Source of the DNA: an uncultured Chloroflexia bacterium
GTDB taxonomy: Bacteria > Chloroflexota > Limnocylindria > Limnocylindrales > CSP1-4
Reading direction: 5' to 3'
Assembly (NCBI GenBank): GCA_963834915.1
Contig: CAWIDI010000006.1
Location: 11,272-75,271, forward strand
Length of the DNA stretch: 64,000 nucleotides
The notes under the pieces are model-generated. The model saw only the letters and a list, made by a program, of their open reading frames with translations, had not been told where the DNA came from and ran no database searches. Of this stretch, positions 786 through 52,835 are shown one piece after another. Within the stretch, counting starts at the first letter, position 1. Every line of letters starts with the position of its first letter. The translations under genes and the position numbers were made by a program.

Positions 786-2850
786 TTACGCGCGACGCGA
801 TGTGCCGTCAACGTCGTCGCGGCGCCATCAGGGCTTGCGCCCGCGCGACAAGGCGGAGGGGGTGGAGTCGGCGCGACCACCCTGTCGGAGCGGAGCTATG
901 CCGCCGACGGCACCATCAGCTGGCGCAAGGACGGCGACGGCGCGGCCATCGGCCAGTCGGACTTCACCTATGACTGGGCCAAGCGACTGACGCTGGTCGA
1001 CCTGCCCGACGCGAACTTCTCGACCGCCCAGCCGGGCTTCGCCTGGCGGCTCGACGGCCTGATCGGCAGCCGCACCTGGAACGGCGGCACCGCCGCGACG
1101 TTCAGCTACGACGGGGCCAAGCGCCTGACCGGGATCACCAAGGGCTCGCTCACCGAGACGCAGGCCTACGACGTCGACGGGAACGTCACGTCCGAGGCGC
1201 GCTCGTTCACCGGGATCAGCGGCGACGCCGGGACCAATACCCAGTCATTCGCCTACGACGCGCTCAACCGGGTGACCTCGAGCACGGGGCTCGCCTCGGG
1301 CACCCGCTCCTACACCTACGACCTCGACGGCAACCGCCTGACCAAGACCGAGGGCGGGGTCACCTTCACCTCGGTGTACGACCGGGCCGACGAGCTCGTG
1401 TCGGTCATCAAGACCGGCGGCTCGACCCAGAACTTCAGCTATGACGCCTTCGGGAACATGACAGGCAACGCCGAGACCGCGGTCGCGGTCACGTCGAGCA
1501 CGTACGACGTCGACAACCAGCTGACGGCGATCGATGCCACGGGCACGGCCAACAAGGCGACCTTCACTACGACGCCCTGGGCCGGTTCCGGACCCGGGTC
1601 GCTGGCGTCGTCCACCGAGACCTACAGCTACGTCGACACCAGCGAGACGGTCGTCCGGGTCGCAACAGCGTCGCGGGCAACCACCGACTCGATCGGTCAG
1701 CCCGCCGGCGACAGGCTCGGGGTCAAGGTCGGCGCAGCACGGTCAACTGGTTCCTGCCCGACCTCCACGGCAGCATCGCGGCCTCGCTCAGCGCGACCGA
1801 GAGCGCGGTCAGCAACGCGATCCGCTACGACGCCTACGGGATGACGATCGCCACCGGGCTCGGCTGCGCGGCCAGACCCCGGTGGGCGAGCAGACCTGGA
1901 AGTACCAGGGCCGGCTCGACGTCAGCCCGGCCGGGCTCGGCACCCCGCTGTACGAGATGGGTGCCCGGTTCTATGCCCCCGGGCTGGGTGCGTTCACCAG
2001 CCTCGACACCGTCGCGGGCTCGGCCCAGAACCCGCTGTCGATGAACCGCTTCCTCTATGCCGAGGCCAACCCGGCCACGCTGGTGGATCCGACGGGCCAC
2101 GAAATCTGCACAAACGCCTCGTCTAATGACCCCGTTGCCGTCTTCGGCAGCGTGATGTGCCAGTTGGCCATGACGGTCGCGGCGGGAGCGGGAGGCATTA
2201 CCATCGGCCCCGAGATCGCAGTTGCGGGTGCATTCGCCGCCGTCAGAATCGCAGTCGCCTATGTCGTGGTCACCAACAGGTCGACGATATCGCTCAATCC
2301 AAACGACTACGCGCCCGGAGAACCAATGCCGACATTCCCTCCGAGCGCCAGGTCGGCTCCTACCCCGGTCCAAGGGCCGATGCCAGGAACCCCCGCAACG
2401 CTGGATATCCCGAGACCACAGCCTGGGCCGCCCCCCGTTGCGATGACCAAGGAGGACCCCACCCACCCTACTAGGACGGTTCCATACGTGCCCGCAATTG
2501 ATCAGGATCCGCCAGGCAAAGGCCCACCGCGCGTACCGCCAAATCTACCCCGCGGCTCGGGCCGATTGGGTGTACTGATGTTCGCGATCCTGAAGCTGTT
2601 CCACGGGATGCAAACCGAGGCGCCACCCCAAACCAAACCGACCCCGACCCCTCGCCAAACACCCACTCGGACTCCGACGCCTGCGCCCTCTCCGTCACCT
2701 TGCCGCAGCCTGTTCCTATGTCCCCCCAAGCCTTCATTTCGCCAGCCAACTCCGCCCCGACCGTGCACCGGACACCGACGCCTACTCGGACGCCGTCGGC
2801 TATCCCAAACTACTCGGACTGGCGAATCTACCTCAGGTTTGAGGAGCCCT
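786..2850 (+). pseudogene. 5'-truncated RHS/YD-repeat protein fragment with the RHS core end and a non-enzymatic-looking C-terminal extension; 2 frameshifts
   Basis: YD repeats (FTYDWAKRL, FSYDGAKRLTGI, FAYDALNRVTS, YTYDLDGNRLTK, FSYDAFGNMTG) lie in frame 3, open from 786 with no in-frame start before GTG 1272. VNWFLPDLHGSIAA is in frame 2 (1742-1860). The core end KYQGRLDV..GARFYAPGLGAFTSLDTVAGSAQNPLSMNRFLYAEANPATLVDPTGH is in frame 1 (ends about 2100). Shifts are near 1738 and 1860. Confidence 0.8.
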
Positions 2851-3420
2851 GTGAGTATCGACCTACTTGGCATCTCCGTCCCAGTCGAGATCTTCATTGG
2901 CGCCGTCATCGTATGCCTGTCCGCACTCTGGCGTAGGTCGCCTCAAGATGGTTGGGTACGGTACACGCTGCTGGCAGTTGTGCCAACCAGCGTCGCGCTC
3001 CTGAGCTTGACGCAGAGTGGGCCAACGGCGTACGTCGTGCTTGGGACTGCCGCGGCATATCTCCTCGTCGCACTCTTCCTAGATCGCATGATGGCGGGTC
3101 CCGGAAATCGGGCGTCGCACATGCGCTTGTTTGTCGTCGAAGTATCTGCATTGGTGAACGAGATTCTTGCCATCGAGGAACGTATCCGCGATCGGGCCGA
3201 CCACGAATTGCTCGAGCTCGATGCCAACGCGGCAACTGCGAGCCTCCAGAGAGTCCACCCGCCCGACACGCGAGCGGCCAGCCTTCGAAACGACTACGTA
3301 GCCCTGTTGAAGATGAGGACCCAAGCCTGCATTTCGCGCGCCGGCGCGGCCGAGTTCCTGGTCATTGATGGGCGGGTCGACGAGCTTAATCGGCGATTGC
3401 TCTCCCTTGTCGGTCAGTAG
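2851..3420 (+). CDS. Candidate immunity/partner protein with 3 predicted TM helices and a helical C-terminal domain
   Basis: GTG at 2851 follows GAGGAG (2841-2846) by 4 nt. Hydrophobic helices are ISVPVEIFIGAVIVCLSAL, YTLLAVVPTSVALLSL and YVVLGTAAAYLLVALFL. It is in frame with the Rhs ORF with no stop between, so the boundary is inferred. Confidence 0.4.
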   Translation: MSIDLLGISVPVEIFIGAVIVCLSALWRRSPQDGWVRYTLLAVVPTSVALLSLTQSGPTAYVVLGTAAAYLLVALFLDRMMAGPGNRASHMRLFVVEVSALVNEILAIEERIRDRADHELLELDANAATASLQRVHPPDTRAASLRNDYVALLKMRTQACISRAGAAEFLVIDGRVDELNRRLLSLVGQ

Positions 3421-3706
3421 CCGCACGCATTTCCCGAGATCTTCAATCAGCACTTGATGAAGTGAACCGTCCTGGGTCTGACGGCAACCGAGCTGGAACC
3501 CGATACCAGGCAGGCATCGCCGCAGACTTGCACGCAGTTCGTAGGGCAGGTCGGACCAAGTGATCATTTCAGGAGGTGTTTGAACCGCGAAACTGGCGAG
3601 TGGCTCGGCGAGGAGGCGCTCCAGCCGCGCCGAAGGGGGAGCCGCGTACTGTTCTCGGCACGCCTGCCTGGAATCGAGCCGCGTCGACGCGCCGTTGTGG
3701 TGTGCG

Positions 3707-5513
3707 CTACGCCCCCGCGAGGTAGTGGCTCAGGACCGTTGGCCCTCTGGCTGAGCACCTTGCTGTAGAGGGCGACCTCGTCGATGACCCCGTCGAAGTA
3801 GGCCGAGCTGTCGTCGTTGCGCCGGCCGATCACCAGCGGGTCGGTGCCCTGCGAGCTCGAGCTGCTGAACCAGCTCGTGGTCACCGTTCGCACTAGGACG
3901 CCGTTGACATAGAACTCGACCTTGTCGGTGGCGTCGTCGAGGGTCACCACGATGTGGCTGGTCTCGTCGTCGGGGACGGTGTCGGCGCCCGACGAGGTGA
4001 CGATCCGGTCCGAGCCCCCGGAGGTCCAGAGGTTCACCCAGATCTCGTCGTCCTCCCACCAGACCCAGTAGTCGTAGCCGTGGCCCGAGCTGCCGCGGAA
4101 GACCACGGTCTCGGTCGGGTTGTCGCCGGTCGGCGCGATCCAGGCCTCGAACGACTTCTTGCCGGTCGAGGCGAACGACAGCGGCGAGTCGACCCCGCTG
4201 GTCACGTAGCTCGACGATCCGTCGAACTCGACCGCGGTGACCGCCTCGCTGACCAGCAGGCCGTCCTCGCCGAGGCTGGCCGAGCCGTGGTAGCTGCCGG
4301 CGTAGTCGGTGGTCACGTCGACCGCGGTAGTGCCCGACGCCTCGCCGAGACGCCAGTAGGCCTGGGGGCCGTCGGTCATGACGGTCGGCCCGTACAGGTC
4401 CACGGCACCAGTCGGAAGCGTGGTGGCGGCATCGGCGACGCCGGGGGCTTCCTCCACGTTCGCCGCGTTGTCTTCAGCACGCGTATACGAACTCGTAGTC
4501 GCCTGGACCTGCACCCAAGCTGAACGTGAAGGGCGAGGACTCCTGCGTGTCGGCGAGGGACCACGAACCCCAGCTCTCCCCGGGCGGCTGATGCCTCGAC
4601 CAGAGCTGTACGCGGCAAATTCCAACGCCGGCGCCGTCATCCGTCGTAAACGGGATGGGCACCGTGGTTGCGGAGGGGTTCTGCTCGGCATCGATCAAGC
4701 CAACGGACGACGTCGGCGGACTCACGTCGGCTTCAATCAATTCGAGATTGCCAATCTTCCACCCGTCGTCGAAAACAAGATCAATCCCTGAGTCGTACGT
4801 CGCCTCGCACTGGTCCTTGCTTACTGTGATCGCGATTTCAGAATGTGCGATATCCCAGCCTGCGTCGTTGGCAGACAACAACGGACTACCCACTGTCACG
4901 ACGGAGGTGAGCTCACCCTGAGCCCCAAAGGCCGTCTCCAGCCCATCAACAAATTCTCCCTCCGTAATGGACCCAGAAATGGTTGGGTGAAGACTCGCGT
5001 AGATGGCTTCCCAGTCCTCGTTCGCGATATTCGAGACCGCTGTCGCAATGGCTGTGGATGCACCACTAGCCGGATCGAGGTCATCGAGTTCGTATTCGGT
5101 CTCGTCCGCCGTAACCAATAAGGTCCCTGACGTGTGGTTTGCGTTGATGGTCCCCTCGATTTCGAGGTCGACTGCGGTGCGGGTGTTGCCTGCACTGAAG
5201 ATCCAAGTTGTGGCGTCGAACGTCGCGTCGGGTGCTTGCCAGCCCGGCCCGGAGTACGAGACTGCAGAACTGATCCGTTCACCTGCGTCGTGATCTCGAC
5301 CGGATCGTCCGACCAGAACAGACCGGCCTCTGCATCGATAAACAGCAGTCGAGCGGACGTCGGCGAGGCGCCGAATTCCACACGTGCGTAACGCTCAGTG
5401 GCGTGGTCCGCGAAGCTTGCAATCTCGACGTCGGCCCGAGCCGGTTTCGGGGCGAGCACGATCCAAGCAATGACGCCTAGCAATCCAATCGCGGCCGTAC
5501 ATGCCCTGGCCAT
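3707..5513 (-). pseudogene. Secreted LamG (Laminin_G_3 / concanavalin-like) domain protein; 2-3 frame breaks
   Basis: Signal peptide MARACTAAIGLLGVIAWIVLAPKPARA. LamG-like C-terminal part is YWRLGEASGTTAVD...FDGSSSYV...FEAWI...VEFYVNGVL...IGRRND..YFDGVIDEVALYSKVLS. The pieces lie in ORFs 4896..5513, 4474..5118 and 3564..4691 (shifts near 5270 and 4487). A probable third shift near 3750 would give ..VLSHYLAGA* with the stop at 3707. Confidence 0.7.
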
Positions 5514-5646
5514 GCGTCTGGTGATCAGTGGCCTTCATTCTTAGGTGCCCGGGTTCGGAACGCATAGATGGGGAATGCCTGTCATTCGTCCATCGATCAC
5601 GTTCGTGACGGCCTTCAATAGGGAATCGACCACATGTGAGCGGCAG

Positions 5647-6781
5647 TCAGGCACCTGAATGATTTTCATGCTGCTCTACGAAATTCGCGTGGAATGCAGG
5701 CTCTGCAAGAAGCCAGCCAGTATCCGGAATTCCAAAATCTGGTTCGAACCGATTGAACGTCGTCGTGTCCGACAGGTTCCACTGCCAGTTCTGAGTGCCG
5801 AGGCTGCCATTCAGGAAGCGCGACCCGCCTCCGCTCGGCACGTCAAATGGACTGTTGGTCCCAGCTGGCAGGAGGCCGTCGCCGTATTCGATCCTTTCAC
5901 CCAGAGGAACGCACGGACCGAAGAAGATACAAAATTCCGCTTGCGCGCCGAGGTCGCCGAACGCATTGAAAGTCGGAAGCGCCGGCAAACGCTCTGGGCC
6001 GGGATTGGCCCACTCGAACCAGGAACTCTCGGAGTTGAGTTCAGAAAGGGCCGGACGAAACGCCGAGCAACCGTTGGTCATCAAGCAGACTGCTGGCCCG
6101 AGTCCATTCAGTTGGGCCCACGCAATGCCATAGGCTGCGACATTGGCGAGAGGTGTCCCGTCATGTGCGCCCTCGAGGAATACCAAGCTGTCGACCATCG
6201 TGGTTGCCACGTCATCTTCCAGTTCGGCCGAATAGCTGAGGAATCCGCGCACGATCGCGGCGCCCATGCTATTGGCGACGATGACTACGGGACGCTCTGT
6301 TTCGAGGTAGATAGTTTGGATATCGGCGTGCAAGGCGACCGCGTTCAACCCGAGGTCGCTTTGGCTGTCGCAGATCTCAGTCGGAGTTCCCGCTGGAGTT
6401 GACGGGCATCCCACCGTTGGGGGTTACGGGCACCGGCAGTGCTCTAGGGGCGCACTCTGCTTCTTCGATACTCCCGAGATCCTGGTAGTACTCGAATAGG
6501 AGGACTCGTCCGATGCCATATGTGTCAATGATCGGGGAAAGAAGGTCGCCAAATTCGTTCGTGTTCTGATATGCCGCGTTGATGCCATGGACGAAGAGGA
6601 GCGTCGGGCCAACCGCGGGGTCGGTGGCAACCCGGCCCGGCTCGCCGTCTGGAGGAGTTGGCGACGCACTGACGGGCTGGGGATGGATGCCTGACAGCAC
6701 GAGGCAAGCACTCACAAGAAGCCCGATGCCGAATCGGCGCCCAAGATCGTGGGCTCCCGACAATTGTCCTCTCGCCGCCAT
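5647..6781 (-). CDS. Secreted alpha/beta-hydrolase, lipase/esterase-like (1 apparent frameshift near 6395)
   Basis: Signal peptide is in ORF 6377..6781 (RRFGIGLLVSACLVLSG). The motifs LLFVHGINAAY and nucleophile elbow VIVANSMGAAI (AxSxG) lie in ORF 5647..6414. The two ORFs join as ..PNGGMPVNSSG/TPTEICDS. Confidence 0.7.
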
Positions 6782-6888
6782 GTTGCCTCCCCGGCTGTCA
6801 GCCTTAGGGAAACCGTAGTGGTCTGAGCACTGCCGTGGCGTAGGACCAAGGGGGTAGTGATGGGGTTATTGGTCCGGCGGACTGCGAA

Positions 6889-7434
6889 CTAGTTGCCGTG
6901 TTCCACCCGGCACCAGCCCACGTCATGCTCCGGGACCGCGTCGGCAAGACGAAAGTCGAAGGCGAGGTCGACTGGCGGATCGTCGGGGTGCCGGGCCTTG
7001 TACTCATCCATCTTCCAAAATGACAGCCTCGCCGTCGTAGTGTTGTTGTGCCAGCCGCATATTTGGGCCTCGGCAATCGAGCCTACGATCGACATGCCCC
7101 CGCCGCGCGACCAACCCATGGCAGTCAGCTGGCGGTCGTAATAGTCGATCACCTCGTCGATGCTCGACATGGTGGCGAAGCGGGTCGCTACGGCAGCCTC
7201 CGCGCCAGATGTTCCCTCATAGCCTGTGAGCGCGACCAAGCGCTCCGCCCCCGGGTACGCGAGCTGGGCCTCTGGCAACGCTAACAGTCGCGCTCGCCCC
7301 TTGGCCGGCTGAAGGGCAAACACTGAAATGATCACTAGGCCGACCGCCACAGCCGTCACGGCGGCAACGCGGTAACCGCGCCTGCCACCTACAACTCCCC
7401 GACCTTGTCCGTTTGCCATGTCGTCGCCTCTCAA
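6889..7434 (-). CDS. Hypothetical protein with an N-terminal membrane anchor
   Basis: Intact 181-aa ORF with TM segment YRVAAVTAVAVGLVIISVFAL. The start could instead be the Met at 7419. No family recognised. Confidence 0.55.
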   Translation of the reverse strand: MRGDDMANGQGRGVVGGRRGYRVAAVTAVAVGLVIISVFALQPAKGRARLLALPEAQLAYPGAERLVALTGYEGTSGAEAAVATRFATMSSIDEVIDYYDRQLTAMGWSRGGGMSIVGSIAEAQICGWHNNTTTARLSFWKMDEYKARHPDDPPVDLAFDFRLADAVPEHDVGWCRVEHGN

Positions 7435-7505
7435 CCCGGCGGGCTTTCGCCGACGGGCCTGGGAACCGCAAGCGTACTCGGAAGCAAAGGGTTTGGCCCT
7501 TGACG

Positions 7506-7553: not shown

Positions 7554-7628
7554 TGGAGCCGACACTCGGACTTGAACCGAGGACCTGCTGTTTACGAAAC
7601 AGCTGCTCTACCACTGAGCTATGTCGGC
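7554..7628 (-). tRNA. tRNA-Thr (anticodon CGU), CCA encoded
   Basis: The reverse complement folds as a cloverleaf. Acceptor is GCCGACA/UGUCGGC, D arm GCUC..GAGC, anticodon stem GCUGU/ACAGC with loop UUCGUAA, T arm CUCGG-UUCAAGU-CCGAG, then U-CCA. Confidence 0.92.
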
Positions 7629-16896: not shown

Positions 16897-16993
16897 GCGG
16901 TCGCGCGCCCGCCCATCAGCGTGCGTGCCGGCCGTCACGACGGCCCATTCGTGCACGCGGTCCCGGGTCCGAGTGACAAGCGGCCCCCTTTTC

Positions 16994-17004
16994 ATGTGAC
17001 ACAT
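16994..17004. promoter_or_regulatory. Small perfect palindrome upstream of doxX-MCO (candidate operator)
   Basis: ATGTG-A-CACAT lies about 100 nt upstream of ATG 17101. It is a single occurrence. Confidence 0.2.
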
Positions 17005-17100
17005 CGCCGTATCGACCGCATCGGCTGAACCGCCAACCTCCCGACATCAGTCCTGAGGGACTCGGCCCATCGGCCGGAACGGGAGAAGGAGGCATTCGAG

Positions 17101-17868
17101 ATGGCGACGATCCGTCGGTACGGGATCCCCTTGGGGATCATCGCGACCGCGCTATTGATCCTGTTGTTCAATCCATGGGTCCTGATCGACGAGGGTCCGC
17201 TCCGCCAGGCGATGACGGTCGGCTTCTGGATCTCCTTCATCGCGCTGCTCGTGGTCCTGTTCCAGGCCCGGAAGGACCCGGGCGCCGAGGACGTCCAGAT
17301 GGAAGGCCCGCGCTTCGCGCGATTCCTCTTCTACAACGCCCAGGCCGGGCTCTTCTGGCTGCCGATCCGCCTGTTCCTCGGGTTCGCGTGGCTCGAGGCC
17401 GGCTGGCACAAGCTCACCGGCGGCGGCTGGATCGACGGCGGCTCCGCGCTCGCCGGCTTCTGGCAGGCCGCGGCCAAGGTCCCCGAGGCGGGGCAGGGAC
17501 GCCCACCGATCTCCTACGACTGGTATCGCGACTTCATCAACTTCCTGATCACCGGGCACCACGAGACCTGGTTCGCGTGGCTCATCACGTTCGGTGAGCT
17601 CGCCATCGGCCTCGGCCTGCTGTTCGGCGCGCTGACCGGCGTCGCGGCCTTCTTCGGGGCGCTGATGAACATGTCGTTCCTGCTCGCCGGCTCGTCATCG
17701 ACCAACCCGGTCCTGTTCACCATGGCGGTCGGCCTGATCCTGGCCTGGCGCGTCGCCGGCTACTACGGCGTCGACCGCTACCTGCTTCCGGCGCTCGGTG
17801 CGCCGTGGCGGCCCGGAACGGTCTTCCACGGGGGAGGCACCCCCGCATCCTCGGCCAACCAGGCGTGA
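17101..17868 (+). CDS. DoxX/DoxD-like membrane protein
   Basis: Intact 255 aa. RBS GAAGGAGG. LFLGFAWLEAGWHKL and ELAIGLGLLFGALTGVAAFFGALMN are typical of the DoxX family. Confidence 0.7.
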   Translation: MATIRRYGIPLGIIATALLILLFNPWVLIDEGPLRQAMTVGFWISFIALLVVLFQARKDPGAEDVQMEGPRFARFLFYNAQAGLFWLPIRLFLGFAWLEAGWHKLTGGGWIDGGSALAGFWQAAAKVPEAGQGRPPISYDWYRDFINFLITGHHETWFAWLITFGELAIGLGLLFGALTGVAAFFGALMNMSFLLAGSSSTNPVLFTMAVGLILAWRVAGYYGVDRYLLPALGAPWRPGTVFHGGGTPASSANQA

Positions 17869-19187
17869 ATCCCTCCTCCCCGTCCCAGGCCTCCTCCGCC
17901 CCGCAAGGGGCGGAGGAGGCAGCCCTCGCCGGGCCTCTCTCCCGGCGAGGGTTCCTTCGGGCCGCGACCGTCACGGGCGCGGGCATCGTCGCGACCACGG
18001 TCGTGGCCTGCACGCCGCCCGTCGCGGCCCGCGGCTGGACCTACGCCCCGGCGACCCCGGGGCCGTACGCCCCCAGCCCGGCAGCGTCGGCCGATGCGAG
18101 CGCGGCGCCGTCCGCGTCGGTCGCCCCATCGATGGATCACGCGTCGGGGTCGGCGTCGCCTGCGCCCAGCGCGAGCCCGCCCGTCGACCACGACGCGATG
18201 GCCCTGGCCGTGGTCAAGCGGTTCCTCGGCGGCGAGAGCGCCGCGATGGAGGGCAGCGGCAACCAGCCGCTCGAGCCCACGGTCGATGGCGACACCAAGG
18301 TGTTCGAGCTCACGGTCGACCCGATCAAGCACAAGATCGACGCCAACGCCAAGGACCTCGACGCGCTCGGCTTCAACGGGACATGGCCGGGACCGCGGAT
18401 CACGGTCACCGAGGGTGACAAGGTCCGCGCCATCTTCAAGAACAACATGGCCGAGTCCACCGGGATCCATTTCCATGGCCAGCGCGTGCCGAACGCGATG
18501 GACGGCGTCCCGCACATCACCCAGGACCCGATCCCGCCGGGCGGCAGCTTCACCTACGAGTTCGTGGCGAAGATGTCCGGCTCGCACATGTACCACTCGC
18601 ACCACAACGCCACCGACCAGGTGGGGCGCGGGCTGCTCGGGGCGTTCATCGTCGAGCCGAAGGACCCCGCCGAGCGCTACGACAAGCTGTACGGCGCGAC
18701 CCAGGACATCGTCTGGATCAGCAATGACGCGCTCGGCGGTTTCACGATCAACGGCCGTGGGTTCCCCGCGACCGCACCGATCGTGGCGACCCTCGGCGAG
18801 ACCATCGTCATCCGGTTCATGAACGAAGGGAACATGAGCCACCCGTGGCACCTCCACGGGGTGCCGATGCGGGTCGTGGCACGGGACGGGCATCCGCTCG
18901 GGACCGCGGCGTTCACGTGCGACACCCTGGGCGTCAACCCCGGGGAGCGCTGGGACGTCGTCATCAAGTGCGACGAGCTCGGGGCGTGGGCGTTCCACTG
19001 CCACATCCTCCAGCACGCCGAAGGCCAGAACGGGATGTTCGGGATGGTCACCGCGCTGGTCGTCCAGGAAGCCGCGGCCGCATCGACGGTCGTGCCGGGG
19101 ACGACGGCCAGTGGCTCCGCCGTCGCGGCGGCCGCTCGGGCCGCTGGGTCGACCGCGTTCGCGTGTCAGGTGCCGCAGGTCAGCTAG
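17865..19187 (+). CDS. Tat-exported multicopper oxidase
   Basis: GTG 17865 overlaps the doxX stop (GTGA). Tat motif SRRGFLRAA. Copper motifs are IHFHGQ, YHSHHN, HPWHLHG and HCHILQHAEGQNGM. Confidence 0.85.
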   Translation: MNPSSPSQASSAPQGAEEAALAGPLSRRGFLRAATVTGAGIVATTVVACTPPVAARGWTYAPATPGPYAPSPAASADASAAPSASVAPSMDHASGSASPAPSASPPVDHDAMALAVVKRFLGGESAAMEGSGNQPLEPTVDGDTKVFELTVDPIKHKIDANAKDLDALGFNGTWPGPRITVTEGDKVRAIFKNNMAESTGIHFHGQRVPNAMDGVPHITQDPIPPGGSFTYEFVAKMSGSHMYHSHHNATDQVGRGLLGAFIVEPKDPAERYDKLYGATQDIVWISNDALGGFTINGRGFPATAPIVATLGETIVIRFMNEGNMSHPWHLHGVPMRVVARDGHPLGTAAFTCDTLGVNPGERWDVVIKCDELGAWAFHCHILQHAEGQNGMFGMVTALVVQEAAAASTVVPGTTASGSAVAAAARAAGSTAFACQVPQVS

Positions 19188-19314
19188 GGTCTTCCGTGCC
19201 GTCGCCGGCGCCGGCGCCCGCGCCCGTGACCGCGACCGCGACCCGCCAGCGCCCGCGATCGGCGCACGAATCACGAATCACGACGCCCGGATCGACGTGG
19301 TCGACCCGGGCGTT

Positions 19315-19405
19315 CGATATGCACGATCTGCGCGACGGAAGTCGTTGGTGTTCGGGGTATCCATATCGGATGCATATGCATCCGAGTGGCATACGCCAGG
19401 CGTGT
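19315..19405. repeat. Dispersed AT-rich intergenic element, copy A
   Basis: CGATATGCACG...GGATGCATATGCATCC (perfect 16-bp palindrome, 19368-19383)...GAGTGGCATACGCCAGGCGT. It is related to the copies at 22811, 40395 and 52589. Confidence 0.7.
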
Positions 19406-19408
19406 GCT

Positions 19409-19480
19409 CGGGCCAGACGGGCCAGACGGGCCAGACCGGGCCAGACGGGCCAGACCGGGCCAGACCGGGCCAGACCGGGC
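19409..19480. repeat. Tandem 9/10-nt repeat (GGGCCAGAC[C]), about 7 units
   Basis: cgGGCCAGACGGGCCAGACGGGCCAGACCGGGCCAGACGGGCCAGACCGGGCCAGACCGGGCCAGACCGGGC, ending at the stop codon of the vWA gene. Confidence 0.9.
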
Positions 19481-20574
19481 TACGGCAACCGGCCGAACCA
19501 GAGAGCGGACATGCCGGCCCCGGCCACGACCAGCACGAGCGCCGCGGCCGCGAACGCGAATGTGACCTCCTGCGTCTCCTGCGTGTAGCCGACGCGCGAT
19601 TGCAGGTTGTCGTACACGGCACTGAGGTCGTTGGCGGTCGTGGCGTCGAACGCCGTCGCGCCGGTGATCTCCGCGATCTGCGCGAGCGTCTCGGTGTCGG
19701 GCGGCACGTCCAGGGTCAGGAGCTGACCATTGTCGTCGCGGACCTGGATGCGGCCCTCCGGCGTCCCCAGCGCGATCGTGTAGACGGGGACGCCCAGCGC
19801 GGCGGCGCGGTCGGCCGCATCGAGCGGCTGCGCTTCCCCGACGGAGTTGGCCCCGTCTGACAGCAGGATCGCGGCGACCAGCGGCTGGCCGGACGGCTCG
19901 TCAGCGGGCGCCCCACTCGCGGGAGGTGCCCCACTCGAGGACGGGGCAAGGGACGCTGACGCGTCGGGCGCGGCCGACGGATCCGCGGACGGGGCCGGAG
20001 CGGCCCCGGCCGACCCGTTGTCGCTGCCTTCGGCCTTGATGGCCTCGGCGATGTCGAGGACCTGCATCAGGGCATCGCCCATGGCGGTCCCGTCGCGCGG
20101 CCGCAGACCGTCGATCGCCTCGTCCAGCGTCGCGTGGTCCGCGGTCGGCTCGACCAGCGTCTCCGGCTTCGAGGCGAACGACACGATCCCGACCCGGATC
20201 CCCTCGGGCAGCTGTGCCACGAACGACTTGGCTGCGGCCTTCGCGGCATCGAGCCGGGTCGGTGCCACATCGGTGGCCTTCATCGAGCCCGAGATGTCGA
20301 TGGCCAGGATGACCGTGGCATCTTCCCGGGGAGTGGCGAGGACCATGGTCGGGCGCGCGAGCCCAACGGCCAGCAGGGCGATGGCGACCAGGTAGAAGGC
20401 CGCAGGCACGTGGCGCCGCCACGCGGGTCGTGTCGGCGCCAGGTTCGCGAGCAGGTCCAGGTTGGTGAACCGGACCGCGTACCGGGTCCGCCGCCGCTGG
20501 ACCAGCACGTACAGGCCGAGCAGGACCGGCACAAGAAGCAGGCCCAGGAGGAGCATCGGCGCGAGGAAGTTCAT
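19480..20574 (-). CDS. vWA-domain membrane protein (BatA-like)
   Basis: MNFLAPMLLLGLLLVPVLLGLYVLVQRRR.., MIDAS motif AIDISGSM, C-terminal TM. It lies within composite ORF 19480..21594, and the ATG at 20574 overlaps the DUF58 stop. Confidence 0.85.
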   Translation of the reverse strand: MNFLAPMLLLGLLLVPVLLGLYVLVQRRRTRYAVRFTNLDLLANLAPTRPAWRRHVPAAFYLVAIALLAVGLARPTMVLATPREDATVILAIDISGSMKATDVAPTRLDAAKAAAKSFVAQLPEGIRVGIVSFASKPETLVEPTADHATLDEAIDGLRPRDGTAMGDALMQVLDIAEAIKAEGSDNGSAGAAPAPSADPSAAPDASASLAPSSSGAPPASGAPADEPSGQPLVAAILLSDGANSVGEAQPLDAADRAAALGVPVYTIALGTPEGRIQVRDDNGQLLTLDVPPDTETLAQIAEITGATAFDATTANDLSAVYDNLQSRVGYTQETQEVTFAFAAAALVLVVAGAGMSALWFGRLP

Positions 20575-21551
20575 GCGGTTCGTCCAGTCGTGTCGAGGCC
20601 GCGCGCGAACGCGGTCAGCCAGGGTCCGTCGGTGGAAAGTCGAAGGTGTCGCACGCCGAGTCGGGCGAACTCGGCGGCGAGGGCCGCGCGCTCGGTCGCG
20701 GCGGCATCGGAGAAGGTGCTGCGCAGGCGTCGGTCGCCGGTATCGATGCGCACGGTCCGGCCCGTCTCGGGATCGATCAGGGTCAGCTCGCCGACGTCGA
20801 CGAGGGTCTCCTCGCGCGGGTCGGTGATCTCGATCGCGAGGACCGTGTGGCGGCCCGCGATGGCGGTCATCTCGCGGCGCCAGTCCCGGGCGCCGCGGAA
20901 GTCCGAGATGACCACGACGAGGCCGGCGGTCGTCCGTGCCGCCGCGATGACGCGCAGGGCGCGCTGCATCGACGTCGGGCCGCCACCCTCCTCGGCCGGC
21001 TCGGCCGAGAGCGCCCGGATCAGGCCGGTGAGCCCGACCCGCCCGCCAGCGGGCGGCGTGATCGTCTCGCGCTCGCCCGAGCCGAAGGTGATGACGCCGA
21101 GCCGGTCGGTCCGTCGGGCGACGAAGCGGCCGACCACGAGCGCTGCGCCCTCGGCGACGTCCGCCTTGCGCCGGTCGGCCGTGCCGAACTGCATCGAGGC
21201 GGACTGGTCGAGGAGGACCCACGCGGTCATCTGGCGGTCCGGCACGTCCTCGCGGACCTGCGGGACCAGGCTGCGCGCGGTCGCGTTCCAGTCGATGCGG
21301 CGGACGTCGTCGCCCGGCTCGTACGGCCGGAGCCGGTCGAGGTCGAGGCCTTCGCCGAGGCCGCGGCCGCGGTGGTCGCCGGTCATCCGGCCGCCGACCC
21401 GACGGGTCAGCGACACCTCGAGCCGGCGGACGAGGTCGTCCGCGATGGGGCCGGGGCCGGGGCGCGCGGGGGTCCGTGCCCGCGCGGCCGAGGCGGCCGA
21501 GCCGATGGCCGGCCGAGCGGCTGCGCCGCTCGGCCGTACGGAACCCGTCAT
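20571..21551 (-). CDS. DUF58 domain protein
   Basis: Intact 326 aa with RPYEPGDDVRRIDWNATAR. It has 4-nt overlaps on both sides. Confidence 0.85.
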   Translation of the reverse strand: MTGSVRPSGAAARPAIGSAASAARARTPARPGPGPIADDLVRRLEVSLTRRVGGRMTGDHRGRGLGEGLDLDRLRPYEPGDDVRRIDWNATARSLVPQVREDVPDRQMTAWVLLDQSASMQFGTADRRKADVAEGAALVVGRFVARRTDRLGVITFGSGERETITPPAGGRVGLTGLIRALSAEPAEEGGGPTSMQRALRVIAAARTTAGLVVVISDFRGARDWRREMTAIAGRHTVLAIEITDPREETLVDVGELTLIDPETGRTVRIDTGDRRLRSTFSDAAATERAALAAEFARLGVRHLRLSTDGPWLTAFARGLDTTGRTA

Positions 21552-22642
21552 GCCGAGATCTCGCCCGCCATGTCGAGGTGCGGGGCGCGGACAAGGGTCA
21601 GCACCCGGGCGATGATCGCGTCGGGGGTGATCCCGTCGGCCAGCGCCGCGTAGCTGAGGATGATCCGGTGGCGGAGGACGTCGGGCGCGAGCTCGGCCAC
21701 GTCCGACGGCAGCACGTAGCGGCGGCCGCGCAGGACGGCCAGCGCGCGGGCGCCGTTGACGAGATTGATCGAGCCGCGCGGGCTGGCGCCGTACGAGACG
21801 TAGTCGGCGAGGTCCGGCGCGCCCCAGTACTCGAGCTTGCGGGTGGCCTCGACCAGCCCGACGGCGTAGCTGATGATCCGCGGGTCGACGTAGACGTCGT
21901 TGACTCGCTCCTGGAGCTGGAGCAGCTCCTCGGTGTCGAGGACCTTGCGCGGCGGCAGCCCGGGGCGGAGCGAGCGGGCGACGATCTGCGCCTCCTCGGT
22001 CGCGCTCGGGTAGCCGACCAGGATCTTGAGCATGAAGCGGTCGACCTGCGCCTCGGGGAGCGGGTAGGTGCCCTCGGCCTCGATCGGGTTCTCCGTGGCG
22101 AGGACCAGGAACGGGGAGGGGACCTGGTAGGTCGTGTGGCCGATCGTGACCTGGTGCTCCTGCATGACCTCGAGGAGGGCCGACTGGACCTTCGCCGGGG
22201 CGCGGTTGATCTCGTCCGCGAGGAGGAAGTTCGCGAAGACCGGGCCGAGCTCGGTGTCGAAGGTCGCGGCGCCCGGGCGGTAGATGCGGGTGCCGACGAG
22301 GTCGGACGGCATGAGGTCCGGCGTGAACTGGATGCGCTTGAACGAGCCGCCGAGGACGTCGGCGAGCGTCTTGATCGTCAGCGTCTTGGCGAGGCCGGGG
22401 ACGCCCTCGAGGAGGATGTGGCCCCCGGACAGCAGGCCGACGAGGATCCGCTCGAGCATCTGGTCCTGGCCGACGATGACGCGGCGGACCTCGAAGAGCA
22501 CCGATTCCGCGACGGTGCGGGCGTCGGCGGTGTCCGGCACCGAGTGGAGGTCACGCGTGGTGGTGGCGGCAGGCTCCGCGGTCGCAGCCGCGGCAGGCGC
22601 GCGGGTCGGATCGGGGGACTGGGTCATGGCGGCACATCTCAC
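21548..22642 (-). CDS. MoxR-family AAA+ ATPase
   Basis: GHILLEGVPGLAKT (Walker A) and FLLADEINRAPAKVQSALLEVMQE. Intact 364 aa. Confidence 0.9.
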   Translation of the reverse strand: MRCAAMTQSPDPTRAPAAAATAEPAATTTRDLHSVPDTADARTVAESVLFEVRRVIVGQDQMLERILVGLLSGGHILLEGVPGLAKTLTIKTLADVLGGSFKRIQFTPDLMPSDLVGTRIYRPGAATFDTELGPVFANFLLADEINRAPAKVQSALLEVMQEHQVTIGHTTYQVPSPFLVLATENPIEAEGTYPLPEAQVDRFMLKILVGYPSATEEAQIVARSLRPGLPPRKVLDTEELLQLQERVNDVYVDPRIISYAVGLVEATRKLEYWGAPDLADYVSYGASPRGSINLVNGARALAVLRGRRYVLPSDVAELAPDVLRHRIILSYAALADGITPDAIIARVLTLVRAPHLDMAGEISA

Positions 22643-22810
22643 GGTTCGGGTGGGTGGTCGGATGGCTCGAGTCGAGCCCGTTGCCGCCCACTATCGCGTC
22701 CATTTCTGAAGGCACGGTGAGAGGACCGGTTTGGAAATCTGAATATCGTCGGGGTGGCCGCAGCGGTCCGGCGGGCTCCCCGTCGCGTGCTCCAGCCCGG
22801 CACGCCGCCG

Positions 22811-22930
22811 GAATCCTTATGCATGTCGGATGCATATGCCCCCCTTGGCGATCCGTCCGCTCGAGCACCCGTGAATATGCATCCGAGGTGCATACCGAAT
22901 CGGGTTGCCCCCCGGACGGGCGCAACCCCG
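22811..22930. repeat. Dispersed AT-rich intergenic element, copy B
   Basis: TTATGCATGTCGGATGCATATGCC...GTGAATATGCATCCGAGGTGCATACCGAATCGGG, then hairpin GGGTTGC-N13-GCAACCC (22902-22928). Confidence 0.7.
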
Positions 22931-22942
22931 TACGATGAGCGC

Positions 22943-23776
22943 GTGAAGCTCAACGTCGCCCTCGTCCAGCTCGACGCCACCGGTGACGTCGACGCGAACA
23001 TCGAGCGCGCGACCACCCTCGCGGACGAAGCGGCCGCGGGCGGCGCCCGGCTGGTCGCGCTCCCTGAATACCTCCAATACCGCGGCCCCGACGACGGCTT
23101 CCGCGCCAGCGCGCGCCCGATCCCGGGCGAGCACACCACCGCCTTCGCCGAGGTCGCGCGACGGCATGGCACCTGGATCCTCGTCGGCAGCCTGGCCGAG
23201 GCCTCCGCCGACCCGCTCCGCCCCTTCAACACCAGCGTCCTGATCGACCCGGCCGGCGAGATCAGCGCCACCTACCGCAAGATCCACCTCTTCGACGTCG
23301 CGGTCGACGAAGGGCCGGCGGACACGGAGTCCAAGCGGGTCAGCGCCGGCGACTCGACGACGGTCGCCGAGGTGGACGGCACGAAGCTCGGGATGACCAT
23401 CTGCTACGACGTCCGCTTCCCCGAGCTCTACCGCACGCTCGCGCTCGCCGGCGCCGAGATCCTCACCGTCCCTGCCAACTTCACCGAACGCACCGGTCGC
23501 GACCACTGGGAGGTCCTGCTTCGCGCGCGGGCCATCGAGAATGGCGCGTACGTCCTCGCCCCGGCGCAGACCGGCGGCGGTCCCAAGGCGCCGGCGTACG
23601 GCCGGAGCATGGTCGTCGATCCGTGGGGGACCGTGATCGCCCAGGCCGCCGACACGGTCGGGATCATCCGCGCGGAGCTCGACCTCGACCGCGTCGCCGC
23701 GGTCCGCCGCCAGATCCCGGCCCTCGCGAACCGCCGTCCGGAGACCTATTCCGTGGCGGGTTCGCCCGGGAGGTAG
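22943..23776 (+). CDS. Carbon-nitrogen hydrolase (nitrilase superfamily)
   Basis: GTG 22943 (VKLNVALVQLD). E-K-C triad context is LVALPEY, YRKIHLFD and GMTICYDVRFPE. Confidence 0.85.
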   Translation: MKLNVALVQLDATGDVDANIERATTLADEAAAGGARLVALPEYLQYRGPDDGFRASARPIPGEHTTAFAEVARRHGTWILVGSLAEASADPLRPFNTSVLIDPAGEISATYRKIHLFDVAVDEGPADTESKRVSAGDSTTVAEVDGTKLGMTICYDVRFPELYRTLALAGAEILTVPANFTERTGRDHWEVLLRARAIENGAYVLAPAQTGGGPKAPAYGRSMVVDPWGTVIAQAADTVGIIRAELDLDRVAAVRRQIPALANRRPETYSVAGSPGR

Positions 23777-36489: not shown

Positions 36490-36776
36490 GGCAACACCAG
36501 GCCCGAAGGACCGCCGGTCGAATGGCCGACGGCCTCGCCGCCAGCGGGCTGCTTCCTGCTGCGGATATGTCGCTCATTCATAGAAGCGGGGTTGACCGAC
36601 CCATAGGCGCCCCAGGCGGCCCCCATCTGGGGTCCGGTCGCACGTCGTCGAGCGTGGCCAGGAGCCAGGCGGGCTGTGCCTCGGGCCCGGCTGGCTCTGG
36701 ATCCGGCCGCGGGAGCCACGTGCCATCGAACTTGTGCGTGGGTTAGGAATGGGCGACATAGAGCGGCGCGGAAGGG

Positions 36777-36839
36777 CCCGTGCGAGCCTGGCTGCGGCCC
36801 GTGCGAGCCTGGCTGCGGCTCGTGCGAGCTTGGGCGGCG
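36777..36839. repeat. Tandem 21-nt repeat, about 3 copies
   Basis: CCCGTGCGAGCCTGGCTGCGG x2, then CTCGTGCGAGCTTGGGCGGCG. Confidence 0.85.
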
Positions 36840-36895
36840 CCACTCCCCGCCCGCGGGCCGCGGCGCCCCGACCCCGATCCCGGCACGAAACGCGT

Positions 36896-40278: not shown

Positions 40279-40394
40279 GAGCCCACCGTACCATCATGGT
40301 CGGCTGTGTGCGGCGCCGCGCGGGCGTGGGCGCCGGCGCCGGGTCCGACGGCGCCAAGCGCCCGCCAGGCGTCGATCAGCAGGGCGTCAGGCGC

Positions 40395-40560
40395 CGATAT
40401 GCACGAATCCTCCTGCCGGCCGTCGTTCTCCCGAGTATGCATGTCGGCTGCATATGCAAGATCGGCTGCATCTGCAAAGTGGTCGGGGTGAAGCTCGGCA
40501 TCCCCGCGACACTCGCGGCGACTGAATATGCAGCAGAGGTGAATATCGATTCGGGGGTCG
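40395..40560. repeat. Dispersed AT-rich intergenic element, copy C (longest)
   Basis: CGATATGCACGAATCC...GTATGCATGTCGGCTGCATATGCAAG...CTGAATATGCAGCAGAGGTGAATATCGATTCGGGGG. Confidence 0.7.
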
Positions 40561-40623
40561 CTCGAGCCGGCCGATCGGGCATCCGCGGGAAACGGCAGCG
40601 CGCGCGGGTGGCCCCCGGCGCCG

Positions 40624-41355
40624 CTACCGCCGAGGGATCGTCACGGTCGCCCAGTCGTCGCCGACGGCCCCCGGCCGATACCGGCTGTTGGCGCCGCGGA
40701 AGCTCATCTCGTGGAATCCGACCGCGCGCCAGGATCCGATCCAGCTGTCGATGGGCGGCCGCACGTACGCCCCCAGCCGAATCAGCTCGGACTCCGCCAC
40801 GACGCCCTCGAGCAGGCGCTTCCGCTCGAGGAGCGGCACGTCGAGCAGGGACTGGCCGTCGAGCCACAGCAGGTCGACGATCACGAGGCTCACGACGTCC
40901 TCGGCCGCGAAGACGTTCGCCGCGTCGATGCGACGCTGCTCCTCGAGCCGCTCGGCCGTCTTGGCGATCCGGCCGCCGACGAAGAACTGCGTCATCCGCG
41001 CATTGACCGAGAAGGTCGGGGCCTCAGGCCCGACATAGACGCCGACACCGTCGTGCGACACCTGCTTGGTGAGGTAGCCATCGACGATGAGGCTCCCCGC
41101 GCGCGCCGCGATCCCGAGTGCCGTCACGACCCCCGGCCGGTCGATGACGGGATCGCCGTCGGCATCGATGATCTCCGCCGCGACGCCCTCCGCTTCGCCG
41201 CCCGCCTCGCGATCGACCCCGGCGAGCACGCGCCAACCGACCCACAGCGGCTCGACGATCGGGTTCGCGACGTTCTTCGTGCCCTTCGTGCCGTGCGTCT
41301 CGGGCCGCCAGCCGCGCAGGGTCGAAAGGGTGGCCGACTCCGTCATGGCGCGCAT
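40624..41355 (-). CDS. ATP-dependent DNA ligase-like protein lacking the catalytic lysine
   Basis: EPLWVGWRVLA sits where ligases have EPKWDGYR. DLLWLDGQSLLDVPLLERKRLLE is strongly ligase-like. Motif V is degenerate (GFHEMSFRGANSRYRPG). Intact 243 aa. Confidence 0.6.
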   Translation of the reverse strand: MRAMTESATLSTLRGWRPETHGTKGTKNVANPIVEPLWVGWRVLAGVDREAGGEAEGVAAEIIDADGDPVIDRPGVVTALGIAARAGSLIVDGYLTKQVSHDGVGVYVGPEAPTFSVNARMTQFFVGGRIAKTAERLEEQRRIDAANVFAAEDVVSLVIVDLLWLDGQSLLDVPLLERKRLLEGVVAESELIRLGAYVRPPIDSWIGSWRAVGFHEMSFRGANSRYRPGAVGDDWATVTIPRR

Positions 41356-41417
41356 CGTAGCGGCTGGTCCGGCGCCGGCAAGGGGCGGGGCCTCGGCCGC
41401 GGCGGCCGCGCCTGCCC

Positions 41418-42836: not shown

Positions 42837-42899
42837 CGGGACGATCGTAGCAGTCGACCGGCCCGCGGACGCCCGCCCGGGCGGTAGCATCGGGCGACG

Positions 42900-46510: not shown

Positions 46511-46745
46511 CCCGCCGCGGTTCGCCAGGGAGTTCCCGCCGGGCGCCTCGGACCGTCGCGGGCTCACCCACGGGGAGTGCCTCGGACGCCTCGTTCCGCC
46601 CAGGGTGAACAACGAGCCGGTGAACCGCCGCGAGGGATCCATCTACGACCGCAAATGGAGCCTTCTGTTCGCTGCAGGCGAACGGAACCGCTCCAAGCAT
46701 CGCCCCGGCTCCCGATCCGGCTTGTTCAGCCTGCTTTCGTTCACC

Positions 46746-46830
46746 GACCGCGAACAGGGTCGACGACCGAATGACCGTGAACGCCGGCCGAGGACCGCAA
46801 CGACCGCGAACGCCGGCCGACGACCGCAGT
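46746..46830. repeat. Three imperfect ~28-nt direct repeats in the paaG / TetR gap
   Basis: GACCGCGAACAGGGTCGACGACCGAAT / GACCGTGAACGCCGGCCGAGGACCGCAAC / GACCGCGAACGCCGGCCGACGACCGCAGT. Confidence 0.7.
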
Positions 46831-46916: not shown

Positions 46917-46933
46917 TTAGGAGGTCGCCGGCC

Positions 46934-50179: not shown

Positions 50180-50181
50180 CC

Positions 50182-52588: not shown

Positions 52589-52745
52589 CCATATGCACGT
52601 CTCCGGCGGAAGGCTTCCCGATCCGATATGCACTCGGATGCATATGCCGACGGATGCATATGCCGATGGCGCTCTGCGCGGCCGCACACGCAAATGAATA
52701 TGCAGCCGACATGCATACGCCCGGAAGGACGCCGCCCGGGCGTGG
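52589..52745. repeat. Dispersed AT-rich intergenic element, copy D
   Basis: CCATATGCACG...CGATATGCACTCGGATGCATATGCCGACGGATGCATATGCC...TGAATATGCAGCCGACATGCATACG, then hairpin ACGCCCGG-N11-CCGGGCGT (52717-52743). Confidence 0.7.
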
Positions 52746-52835
52746 CAATACAGGCAGGTTCGGCGCGGCGACGGTTCGGCGCGGCGACGTCGGCGCGGCG
52801 ACGGCCAAGCTCCGGGCGGCGTCACCGCCGCGGCG

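Follow-up and report, generated by a model that had tools for sequence, protein, structure and literature searches.

A dispersed, mirror-symmetric intergenic module of uncultured soil Chloroflexia and its candidate XRE-family regulator

Described repeat families and XRE operators

Several families of short, extragenic and imperfectly palindromic sequences with conserved ends and a variable middle have been described in bacteria, among them BOX in Streptococcus pneumoniae, Correia/NEMIS in Neisseria, ERIC/IRU in enterobacteria, and REP/BIME/REPIN. Some intergenic repeat families carry protein sites, as with IHF in Correia, or RIP elements. The module described here shares this general anatomy, as well as the preference of these families for 3' regions and convergent gaps. 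It differs from them in having no sequence similarity to any, in occurring in tens (an estimate) rather than hundreds of copies per genome, in lacking a target-site duplication, in being heterogeneous outside its conserved blocks and in occupying orthologous positions; moreover, one of its copies holds the gene of a candidate cognate regulator. A REP sequence is an imperfect palindrome of 20-40 nt with a GTAG or CGTC tag at one end (PMC3733652), whereas the unit of the module measures 57-62 nt, its conserved blocks are AT-rich and its arm consensus contains neither tag. The spacers of different copies are only about 39% identical. Terminal inverted repeats, as in a MITE, are present in the module; a target-site duplication, similarity over the whole length, insertion polymorphism between relatives and a transposase partner were not found in the loci examined.

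DdrO of Deinococcus is a small XRE-family repressor, close in size to the candidate regulator described below, with a palindromic motif, RDRM, at tens of loci including its own gene, and RDRM sites lie in promoters. SinR of Bacillus subtilis, also an XRE-type helix-turn-helix (HTH) protein, forms tetramers and has half-sites in both direct and inverted arrangement, with looping. The module recalls the DdrO regulon in that some of its neighbours are repair or stress genes (ImuA/B, UvrD, DinB_2, Usp, OsmC). It departs from DdrO/RDRM in its motif, in the lack of an IrrE/COG2856 protease in the neighbourhood of the candidate XRE gene, and in the many sites found between convergent genes; the XRE protein itself has no specific sequence similarity to DdrO and gave a weak fold match to it (rank 46). 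By analogy, SinR may serve as a model for reading an outer half-site together with a dyad, although the two have nothing in common in recognition sequence, protein tail, taxon or regulon.

The module most likely functions in the manner of operators that serve small dimeric XRE regulators (C-protein, 434 repressor or SinR type); in appearance it resembles the modular intergenic repeats (BOX, Correia, ERIC, REPIN), and it is undescribed. The original prediction had assigned it to no described family, and this view held: there was no Rfam match, and a search of the literature on the motif and on Chloroflexi repeats turned up no description of the module and nothing relevant to it.

Anatomy, contexts and distribution of the module

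The window, meaning the whole stretch of 64,000 nucleotides that was analysed, has a G+C content of 70.3%. Four AT-rich palindromic segments are present in it (copies A to D, Table 1), at the places where the original prediction had put four related AT-rich segments, and their relatedness was confirmed in several ways. The heptamer ATATGCA has 15 occurrences in the window, where shuffled sequence gives 0.86 +/- 0.93. The four gaps hold 14 of them; the isolated one, at 56243, is not a module copy. The 14-mer TCGGATGCATATGC, allowing up to 3 mismatches, was found 11 times against 4.3 expected, with 10 occurrences inside the gaps. An unprompted repeat search of the window recovered both a block-3 family (D9) and a block-2 family (D16). 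Furthermore, PWMs built from the arms of other genomes alone matched exactly these four loci: the dyad PWM found seven dyads in the window (29-41 bits) and none in shuffles, and the outer-block PWM had matches at copies A, C and D (16.5-25 bits).

The copies had been thought to share three separate blocks. The blocks are real, but blocks 2 and 3 are one and the same 19-bp dyad, TATGCA-N7-TGCATA, read in opposite orientations. As the unit is mirror-symmetric, to say that all copies point the same way on the + strand has no meaning. In its full form the unit consists of two mirrored arms of 57 or 62 nt around a variable core. Each arm reads, in order, an outer block (GATATGCACG), a spacer of about 24 nt that is variable in sequence and fixed in length, GAWTCG, and the dyad; in the MAGs the outer block reads sGATATGCACG(A/T)TC and the dyad TATGCA-yyTCGGm-TGCATA. 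The cores, which cannot be aligned between copies, range from 30 to over 500 nt, with 30-230 nt in the MAG copies, and can hold a whole gene. Within one element the left and right dyad spacers differ. A pair of recombination sites (an inverton) was rejected on the grounds that these spacers are not identical and that the dyads lie as little as 58 bp apart.

The window copies are eroded relative to the full unit. Copy A is left without core and right arm, and the loss of the core between its two dyads accounts for its perfect palindrome, which had been predicted at 16 bp and in fact measures 20 bp; the orthologue of copy A in locus L019 (3274-3431) retains the core and the full right arm. Copy B has lost both outer blocks, which are present in its orthologues in L019, L043 and L006. 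The half-dyad unit of copy C is an 18-nt direct duplication (TCGGCTGCATATGCAAGA / TCGGCTGCATCTGCAAAG; TRF row 40436-40477). In copy D, the block-2 copies have a spacer of 6 nt instead of 7 and do not exactly fit the block-2 pattern as it had been written. GC hairpins had been said to follow copies A, B and D; they are there after B and D, but as part of the variable spacer of the right arm. Tandem amplification of sub-units, seen in window copies C and D, reaches five copies in L076/L111. Tandem minisatellites were ruled out as a part of the element, being common in all intergenic regions of the window's genome.

Table 1. Parts of the four module copies in the window, with the evidence for each.
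Feature	Position	Strand	Evidence or remark
Copy A, left outer block (CGATATGCACGATCTG)	19315..19330	.	PWM from MAG arms, 25.1 bits
Copy A, left dyad TATCCATATCGGATGCATA, one mismatch in outer hexamer	19358..19376	.	PWM, 32.0 bits
Copy A, right dyad TATGCATCCGAGTGGCATA, 2-bp overlap with left dyad	19375..19393	.	PWM, 29.1 bits
Copy A, perfect palindrome, 20 bp (TCGGATGCATATGCATCCGA)	19366-19385		Formed by both overlapping dyads
Copy B, left GAWTC-like stretch (GGAATCC) and left dyad TATGCATGTCGGATGCATA (22818-22836)	22811..22836	.	PWM, 39.1 bits; arm of inverted repeat I3
Copy B, right dyad TATGCATCCGAGGTGCATA (22876-22894) and CCGAATCGGG	22876..22904	.	PWM, 40.6 bits
Copy B, GC hairpin (GGGTTGC...GCAACCC), remnant of right-arm spacer	22902..22929	.	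Read from sequence and MFE structure
-10-like TACGAT after copy B hairpin	22931-22936		Followed by GTG start of CN-hydrolase gene (22943; Pfam CN_hydrolase)
Copy C, left outer block (CGATATGCACGAATCC)	40395..40410	.	PWM, 23.6 bits
Copy C, left dyad TATGCATGTCGGCTGCATA (40436-40454) and duplicated half-dyad unit	40436..40479	.	PWM, 30.1 bits
Copy C, right dyad TATGCAGCAGAGGTGAATA and CGATTCGGG	40527..40555	.	PWM, 29.6 bits; repeat family D9
Copy C, right outer block, degenerate, GATCGGGCATCC (consensus GATCGTGCATATC)	40573..40584	.	Alignment with orthologues L031, L078, L009
Copy D, left outer block (CCATATGCACGTCTCC)	52589..52604	.	PWM, 16.5 bits
Copy D, two tandem left dyads (TATGCACTCGGATGCATA and TATGCCGACGGATGCATA), 6-nt spacers, 16-nt tandem unit	52627..52660	.	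TRF row 52635-52666
Copy D, right dyad TATGCAGCCGACATGCATA	52699..52717	.	PWM, 36.1 bits
Copy D, putative right outer block, degenerate, CGTGGCAATAC, past spacer hairpin	52741..52751	.	By analogy with full elements

The gene contexts of the four copies are as originally described. Two copies lie between convergent 3' ends: copy A is flanked in this way by a multicopper oxidase gene and a VWA/BatA gene, copy D by the post-paa gene (ending at 52516) and an unknown gene. Copy B occupies a divergent gap from which a MoxR ATPase gene and a CN-hydrolase gene are read outwards, with the centre of its right dyad 58 bp upstream of the GTG start of the latter (22885 to 22943); judged from the -10-like sequence ahead of that start, the CN-hydrolase gene looks leaderless. 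Copy C is upstream of an unknown 495-aa gene, 100-150 nt before the gene start, and downstream of another gene. The conclusion that the module is not a gene-specific operator was upheld. No regulator gene was found beside the window copies in Pfam scans of about 50 window ORFs.

According to a crude GC3-based gene caller, 37 elements fall into 16 convergent, 14 tandem and 7 divergent gaps, and 46 arms have the outer block towards the 3' end of a gene as compared to 33 that have it towards a 5' end, a skew too slight for a rule that the outer block follows the stop codon, which was dropped. Many copies start just 11-70 nt past a stop codon. Such a convergent-gap excess and 3' bias are unusual for a transcription-factor regulon. 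The flanking genes include an F420 ligase, an aquaporin, DinB_2, an ImuA/B cassette, UvrD, ABC transporters, oxidases, a SorC regulator and a tRNA, with no functional theme among them. Copies cluster by region: a 33-kb part of the window contains four, and the 8 kb surrounding the XRE locus described below contain several. Small ORFs starting from a GTG in the outer block were rejected for want of a conserved frame and for an implausible Shine-Dalgarno spacing.

Beyond the window, the pattern TATGCAKCCGANNTGCATA was searched for in 185,579 species-representative genomes and returned 96 stretches. Eleven MAGs named 'uncultured Chloroflexia bacterium' (Microflora Danica bins, 68-75% G+C) account for 38 of them, the rest being singletons scattered over unrelated taxa. 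In these 11 MAGs the full mirrored unit is seen in about 40 copies, which answers the search for further copies that had been suggested as a check; mirrored arms of 57 or 62 nt, as terminal inverted repeats, were counted in about 30 full elements. A regular expression collected 98 arms, of which about 80 were judged real, nearly always 57 nt long; other MAGs hold a second subfamily, the arms of which measure 62 nt and carry TTTATGCACGATTTCGG...CTATGCATGTCGGATGCATAG. The module is confined to one group of uncultured soil Chloroflexia, and the pattern matches give an estimate of tens of copies per genome, not hundreds. A viral origin was discarded, the viral collection having yielded only two chance matches, on low-GC contigs. 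ATATGC repeats upstream of a PadR gene in L001 were set aside as a different dyad.

Conservation in place, mobility and RNA structure

Loci from other MAGs were compared with the window by BLAST. L019 is syntenic with window positions 16977-23736, and where the window has copies A and B it carries full elements; L031, L078 and L009 are syntenic with 36893-42860 and have full elements at the position of copy C; L043 and L006 also carry the copy B locus. Copies A, B and C are therefore found at orthologous positions in 2-4 species. In these syntenic matches coding DNA is 79-90% identical, and intergenic DNA aligns at the blocks only. Identity between orthologous arms was 0.96 in the dyad hexamers, 0.86 in the outer block, 0.77 in the dyad spacer and 0.43 in the arm spacer, this last value being indistinguishable from the 0.39 obtained for the spacers of unrelated arms. 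That the blocks have stayed 86-96% identical while the arm spacers are saturated indicates that the blocks are under purifying selection in place. We propose that the copies are now inherited vertically, with purifying selection acting on the contact blocks only. As the erosion of the outer blocks at copy B and of the right arm at copy A illustrates, constraint is not absolute.

The MoxR locus was followed through relatives of decreasing identity. The window's MoxR is missing from the protein collection, and its nearest relatives are metagenomic; L005 (MoxR 95% identical) has a degenerate remnant only, L006 (89%) has blocks 1, 2 and 3 and a mirrored block 1 upstream of MoxR, and MoxR loci at 82-84% identity have no module. 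Such a patchy record would fit a non-autonomous transposable element of the MITE, REPIN or BOX kind, in which the arms would be terminal inverted repeats with transposase sites and the copies would persist, selfishly or neutrally, in intergenic havens. The dispersal of copies of 150-300 bp with mirrored arms and a variable core is in keeping with it, as are the bias towards 3' ends and convergent gaps, which resembles that of REP/MITE families, and the tandem amplification of sub-units; an identical multi-block architecture would also be hard to arrive at without copying. However, no target-site duplication was detected in 30 elements, the longest k-mer shared by the two flanks averaging 4.20 where mismatched controls give 4.16 +/- 1.14. 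Within a genome, no protein family comes up repeatedly beside the copies, whether a transposase, RAYT or any other. Among the loci examined there was no transposase-bearing version; the gene-bearing ones enclose an XRE HTH gene, a DUF4395 gene or other non-transposase genes. The orthologous positions and the missing REP tags also speak against a transposable element, and conserved blocks amid unrelated spacers and cores are the opposite of neutral decay from a master copy. A transposable element as the explanation of the module today is unlikely in our estimation. Of the REP/MITE-like character suggested in the original prediction, what stands is the mirrored-arm anatomy and perhaps the mode of spread; present-day mobility does not, in view of the missing duplications and transposase, the orthologous positions and the heterogeneous cores and spacers. 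Many loci share the identical four blocks at fixed distances, which is difficult to explain other than by copying. The dispersed copies therefore likely go back to a MITE-like episode, and such an origin is compatible with the operator reading preferred here.

A different possibility is that the module acts as RNA, as a small RNA, a stabiliser in 3'-UTRs or a bidirectional hairpin terminator transcribed within neighbouring mRNAs. The predicted folds of whole elements are far better than those of dinucleotide shuffles (mean z -4.6; -6.3 for window copy B), copies that start 11-70 nt past a stop leave little room for another terminator, and a simple scan found no canonical terminators in 19100-23000, the region that holds copies A and B. 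The strong folding of whole elements nevertheless results from the blocks shared between their arms. RNAalifold found no spacer helix in a gapless alignment of 41 arms, and in a scan of column pairs in the same arms none exceeded expected pairing by more than 0.16, leaving the proposed covariation check without a covarying pair. Spacer hairpins, which had seemed to covary by eye, were ruled out by these two analyses together with their weak z-scores (mean z -0.57 relative to shuffles). Partner-arm spacers were no more complementary than unrelated ones (-22.2 vs -21.7 kcal/mol, permutation p=0.27) and no more alike (identity 0.44 vs 0.40); these tests rule out a co-evolution of the arms as a long hairpin or cruciform. 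The dyad spacers, moreover, differ between left and right within an element, it is the primary sequence of the AT-rich blocks that is conserved, and a U-tract is missing. The Rfam search of the window, at the gathering threshold and at E<=1, returned tRNA only and no match to the module. With arms that do not co-evolve and a unit that is symmetric on both strands, the small-RNA family put forward in the original prediction lacks support, and we regard a structured RNA as very improbable.

A candidate XRE-family regulator and its putative operators

A metagenome scan with the whole arm and a variable gap gave six contigs. In L106, two arms enclose a 546-nt core that codes for a protein of 119-139 aa with HTH_31 and HTH_3 domains (Pfam). 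An XRE homologue 87% identical to it adjoins the five-fold tandem dyad array of L076/L111, another, 47% identical, lies beside an element in L081, from a MAG of the 62-nt subfamily, and a third, with only its N-terminus on the contig, is beside an element in L109. In the eight usable loci that came from two homology searches the XRE gene is orthologous and chromosomal. In every case it has a divergent ABC-exporter/OsmC operon on one side and, on the other, a convergent methyltransferase/flavoprotein/luciferase-like operon, an arrangement that holds down to about 55% identity. With the dyad defined as ATGCA-N7-TGCAT with up to 1 mismatch, dyads were found within 350 nt of the XRE gene in 10/10 loci, all outside the window, at 4.0 per kb as compared to 0.26 per kb elsewhere in these loci, where most of the background dyads belong to further elements. 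Several other genes near the XRE locus are also bracketed by arms, and adjacency to arms is not unique to the XRE gene.

The distant orthologues L116-L118 have neither arms nor an outer block; 2-3 dyads (GATGCA-N7-TGCATC) in the divergent gap between the ABC and XRE genes are all that is present, a layout which, as read from these sequences, is ordinary for an autoregulated, divergently transcribed regulator. That the same dyad appears as a plain operator by the XRE gene in armless genomes is a further point against a transposable element. The recognition helix, G(V/I)DQT(V/L)IS(R/K)LE(N/T)G, is essentially invariant across three protein clades, and the ATGCA...TGCAT core is invariant across three operator variants. 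The family is small: at E<=1e-10, 1.84 billion proteins yielded 93 representatives. No XRE homologue is encoded in the window; from close relatives (L113 and L006 share a sample of origin) we infer that the source genome probably has the gene. The link between the XRE protein and the dyad is one of association, drawn from these loci.

The best match of the XRE protein among PDB sequences was a 434-repressor derivative, while NCBIfam gave sub-threshold generic matches only. An AlphaFold model (mean pLDDT 68; 78-90 in the HTH core) matched the folds of dimeric C-proteins including C.Esp1396I, of ClgR and of HipB, with DdrO at rank 46. By its domain, sequence and fold matches, the candidate binder has an HTH fold in common with C.Esp1396I, phage 434 repressor, ClgR and HipB. 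By their PDB titles, the C.Esp1396I entries matched show the protein bound to 19-bp DNA and, in another case, forming a tetramer on the operator natural to it; the module dyad is also 19 bp long. The likeness to the C-protein system is confined to the fold: next to the XRE gene lie the ABC exporter, OsmC and a SAM methyltransferase of the Methyltransf_11/23/25 type, no endonuclease was called there, and restriction-modification, toxin or clp genes, as in C-protein, HipB and ClgR systems, are absent from its surroundings. We take the site sequence of the module to be unrelated to C-boxes or the 434 operator. With the operators of small XRE regulators in general the module shares the autoregulatory layout, dyads lying in the regulator's own divergent promoter region; it differs from them in that its dyads are set in arms of 57 or 62 nt with an extra outer half-site, and in that its sites are dispersed, many of them without a promoter. 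Both dyads of operator size and sites at the regulator's own promoter, which the operator set of an XRE (HTH_3) regulator should have, were thus found. From centre to centre the hexamers are separated by 13 bp, a wide spacing for a simple HTH dimer. Motifs of actinobacterial regulators and similar sites were rejected for misfit in sequence or spacing, namely the ArgR ARG box, NsrR, PadR ATGT-N8-ACAT, LysR T-N11-A, sigma-54 -24/-12, dif/Xer and attC; the organism, moreover, proved to be related to Chloroflexia and not to be an actinobacterium.

The above findings point to protein-binding sites, and the clustered sites for a DNA-binding protein named in the original prediction are the option they favour: blocks are kept in place, spacers are saturated, and dyads flank the XRE gene in every one of the ten loci. 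The binder need not be the XRE protein, and sites for a nucleoid- or chromosome-organising protein in the manner of matS/MatP, SlmA or RefZ, or for a topoisomerase or IHF-type protein at gene boundaries, would likewise be conserved in sequence and position next to genes without a functional theme. They would also suit the enrichment in convergent gaps and the regional clustering, and the outer block and GAWTCG are not obviously explained by a single HTH dimer. The dyad, however, tracks the XRE gene across all orthologues, including those from genomes in which the dispersed module was not seen, protein clades correspond to operator variants, and the conserved neighbourhood has no other DNA-binding gene. 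We consider a binder other than the XRE protein quite unlikely.

The account that we favour, with modest confidence that it is right, is that the modules are operator sets of a small XRE regulator which spread once within a subclade, perhaps in a MITE-like way, and have been under selection since. The dyads would be putative operators of a helix-turn-helix protein similar to 434 repressor or to C-proteins. The ancestral state would be that of plain dyads at the regulator's own divergent promoter region; in the subclade of the window's organism the operator may then have been absorbed into the 57- or 62-nt arm, and the resulting module copied as a mirrored pair to more intergenic sites, probably in a MITE-like process that has since ceased. 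One dimer would bind each dyad, the outer half-sites could provide additional cooperative contacts, and paired arms could permit a tetramer or loop. The bound complex would modulate neighbouring promoters at copies B and C. At the convergent copies A and D, with no promoter to regulate, it might act as a block or boundary to read-through, which is a guess and the weakest step of the scheme.

This last function can be made the main one. The XRE operator set, complete and of high affinity, would then have been packaged in the mirror module, spread over the genome and kept by selection mainly at gene boundaries, convergent gaps included, as a bacterial system of boundary elements. The protein bound there would stand in the way of transcription or supercoiling, as a conditional roadblock or as an insulator, in place of acting as on a classical promoter operator, and inverted single arms around whole genes (XRE, DUF4395) would delimit protein-bridged loops. 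We think it unlikely that this is the principal role of the module.

The evolutionary trace that leads from a plain operator to the dispersed module is an unusually clean one; the copies in convergent gaps are a puzzle. Should the link to the XRE protein prove wrong, the module would still be an undescribed repeat that is conserved in place. Should the operator-set account hold, the module would be a clear natural case in bacteria of an operator made portable, spread, and then fixed by selection. It would illustrate the growth of a regulon through copying rather than point mutation, with the ancestral plain dyads still visible in sister lineages, and the copies in convergent gaps raise the question of whether sequence-specific DNA-binding proteins may serve as boundary or termination devices in bacteria. 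For an abundant uncultured group of soil Chloroflexia, the module and the XRE protein would be the first pair of a cis-element and its regulator.

Single arms around genes and tandem dyad units

Single arms of the element in inverted orientation were found to flank entire genes at three loci of relatives, enclosing a DUF4395 gene, a 296-aa ORF and a methyltransferase operon; because such arms bracket whole genes, a gene can serve as the "core" of an element. The dyad was also amplified. A 27-nt unit with one dyad was present in five tandem copies immediately 3' of the XRE regulator gene at L076, and the same array was found at L111. At L112, two dyads lay upstream in place of this downstream array. 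Smaller duplications of the unit were observed in copies C and D of the window.

Repeats and gene content around the window copies

At copy A, the expected place of the right arm was occupied by about 7.5 tandem copies of the 9-10-nt unit CGGGCCAGAC (95% matches). The orthologous locus L019 has a right arm at this position. Minisatellites were frequent in intergenic regions of the window genome and its relatives, as short arrays of 2-5 copies with a period of 9-55 nt; they frequently adjoined elements, yet showed no specificity for them.

Copy D lies directly beyond the last gene after the phenylacetate (paa) catabolic cluster. A lone ATATGCA within a LON_substr_bdg gene had no support from the position matrices and was taken as chance. 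One stretch of reduced GC content (57-65% versus 70%) adjoins a tRNA gene. It codes for a Laminin_G_3 protein, and several of its ORFs had no Pfam match. Since no integrase or transposase was found in this stretch, it may be an old island.

Promoter- and operator-like sequences

At two loci of relatives, a LexA-box-like palindrome, TAGAACATCTGTTCTA, was located between an element and an ImuA/ImuB-type cassette (RecA-like protein plus IMS polymerase). At L001, a relative without elements, the region upstream of a PadR-family gene holds ATATGC three times, together with a dyad, TACTGT...ACAGTA; kinship with the elements was rejected, as this is a distinct operator having the ATATGC string alone in common. 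At L064, a lone arm of the 62-nt subfamily is followed after 56 nt by a TATCAT -10 hexamer, which precedes an apparent tRNA gene. The -10-like hexamers TACGAT or TAGCGT were detected 6-9 nt 5' of start codons that have no Shine-Dalgarno sequence, in the window and at five loci of relatives. These data suggest that leaderless mRNAs are common in the clade of the window organism.

Positions of the features described, in the window and at loci of related genomes
Feature	Location	Position
Inverted single arms	L111	438-505, 1190-1245
Inverted single arms	L112	52-110, 935-1040, 7398-7460, 8383-8440
Inverted single arms	L034	579-640, 2032-2093
Five-copy 27-nt unit	L076	7634-7799
Five-copy 27-nt unit	L111	4409-4568
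9-10-nt tandem array	Window	19409-19480
Minisatellites	Window	36775-36833, 46487-46541, 46745-46828, 52757-52804, 57249-57325
Minisatellites	L005, L025, L029, L040, L043, L056, L081	
paa cluster (paaA/paaB...)	Window	46921-52516 (+)
Lone ATATGCA	Window	56243-56249 (-)
Low-GC stretch	Window	2000-7500
Adjoining tRNA gene	Window	7557-7628 (-)
LexA-box-like palindrome	L038	about 3925-3960
LexA-box-like palindrome	L029	about 2350-2375
PadR-upstream repeats	L001	16040-16095
Lone 62-nt-subfamily arm	L064	about 2200-2360 (minus-strand reading)
-10-like hexamer	Window	22931-22945 (with start codon)
-10-like hexamer	L063, L034, L019, L043, L113
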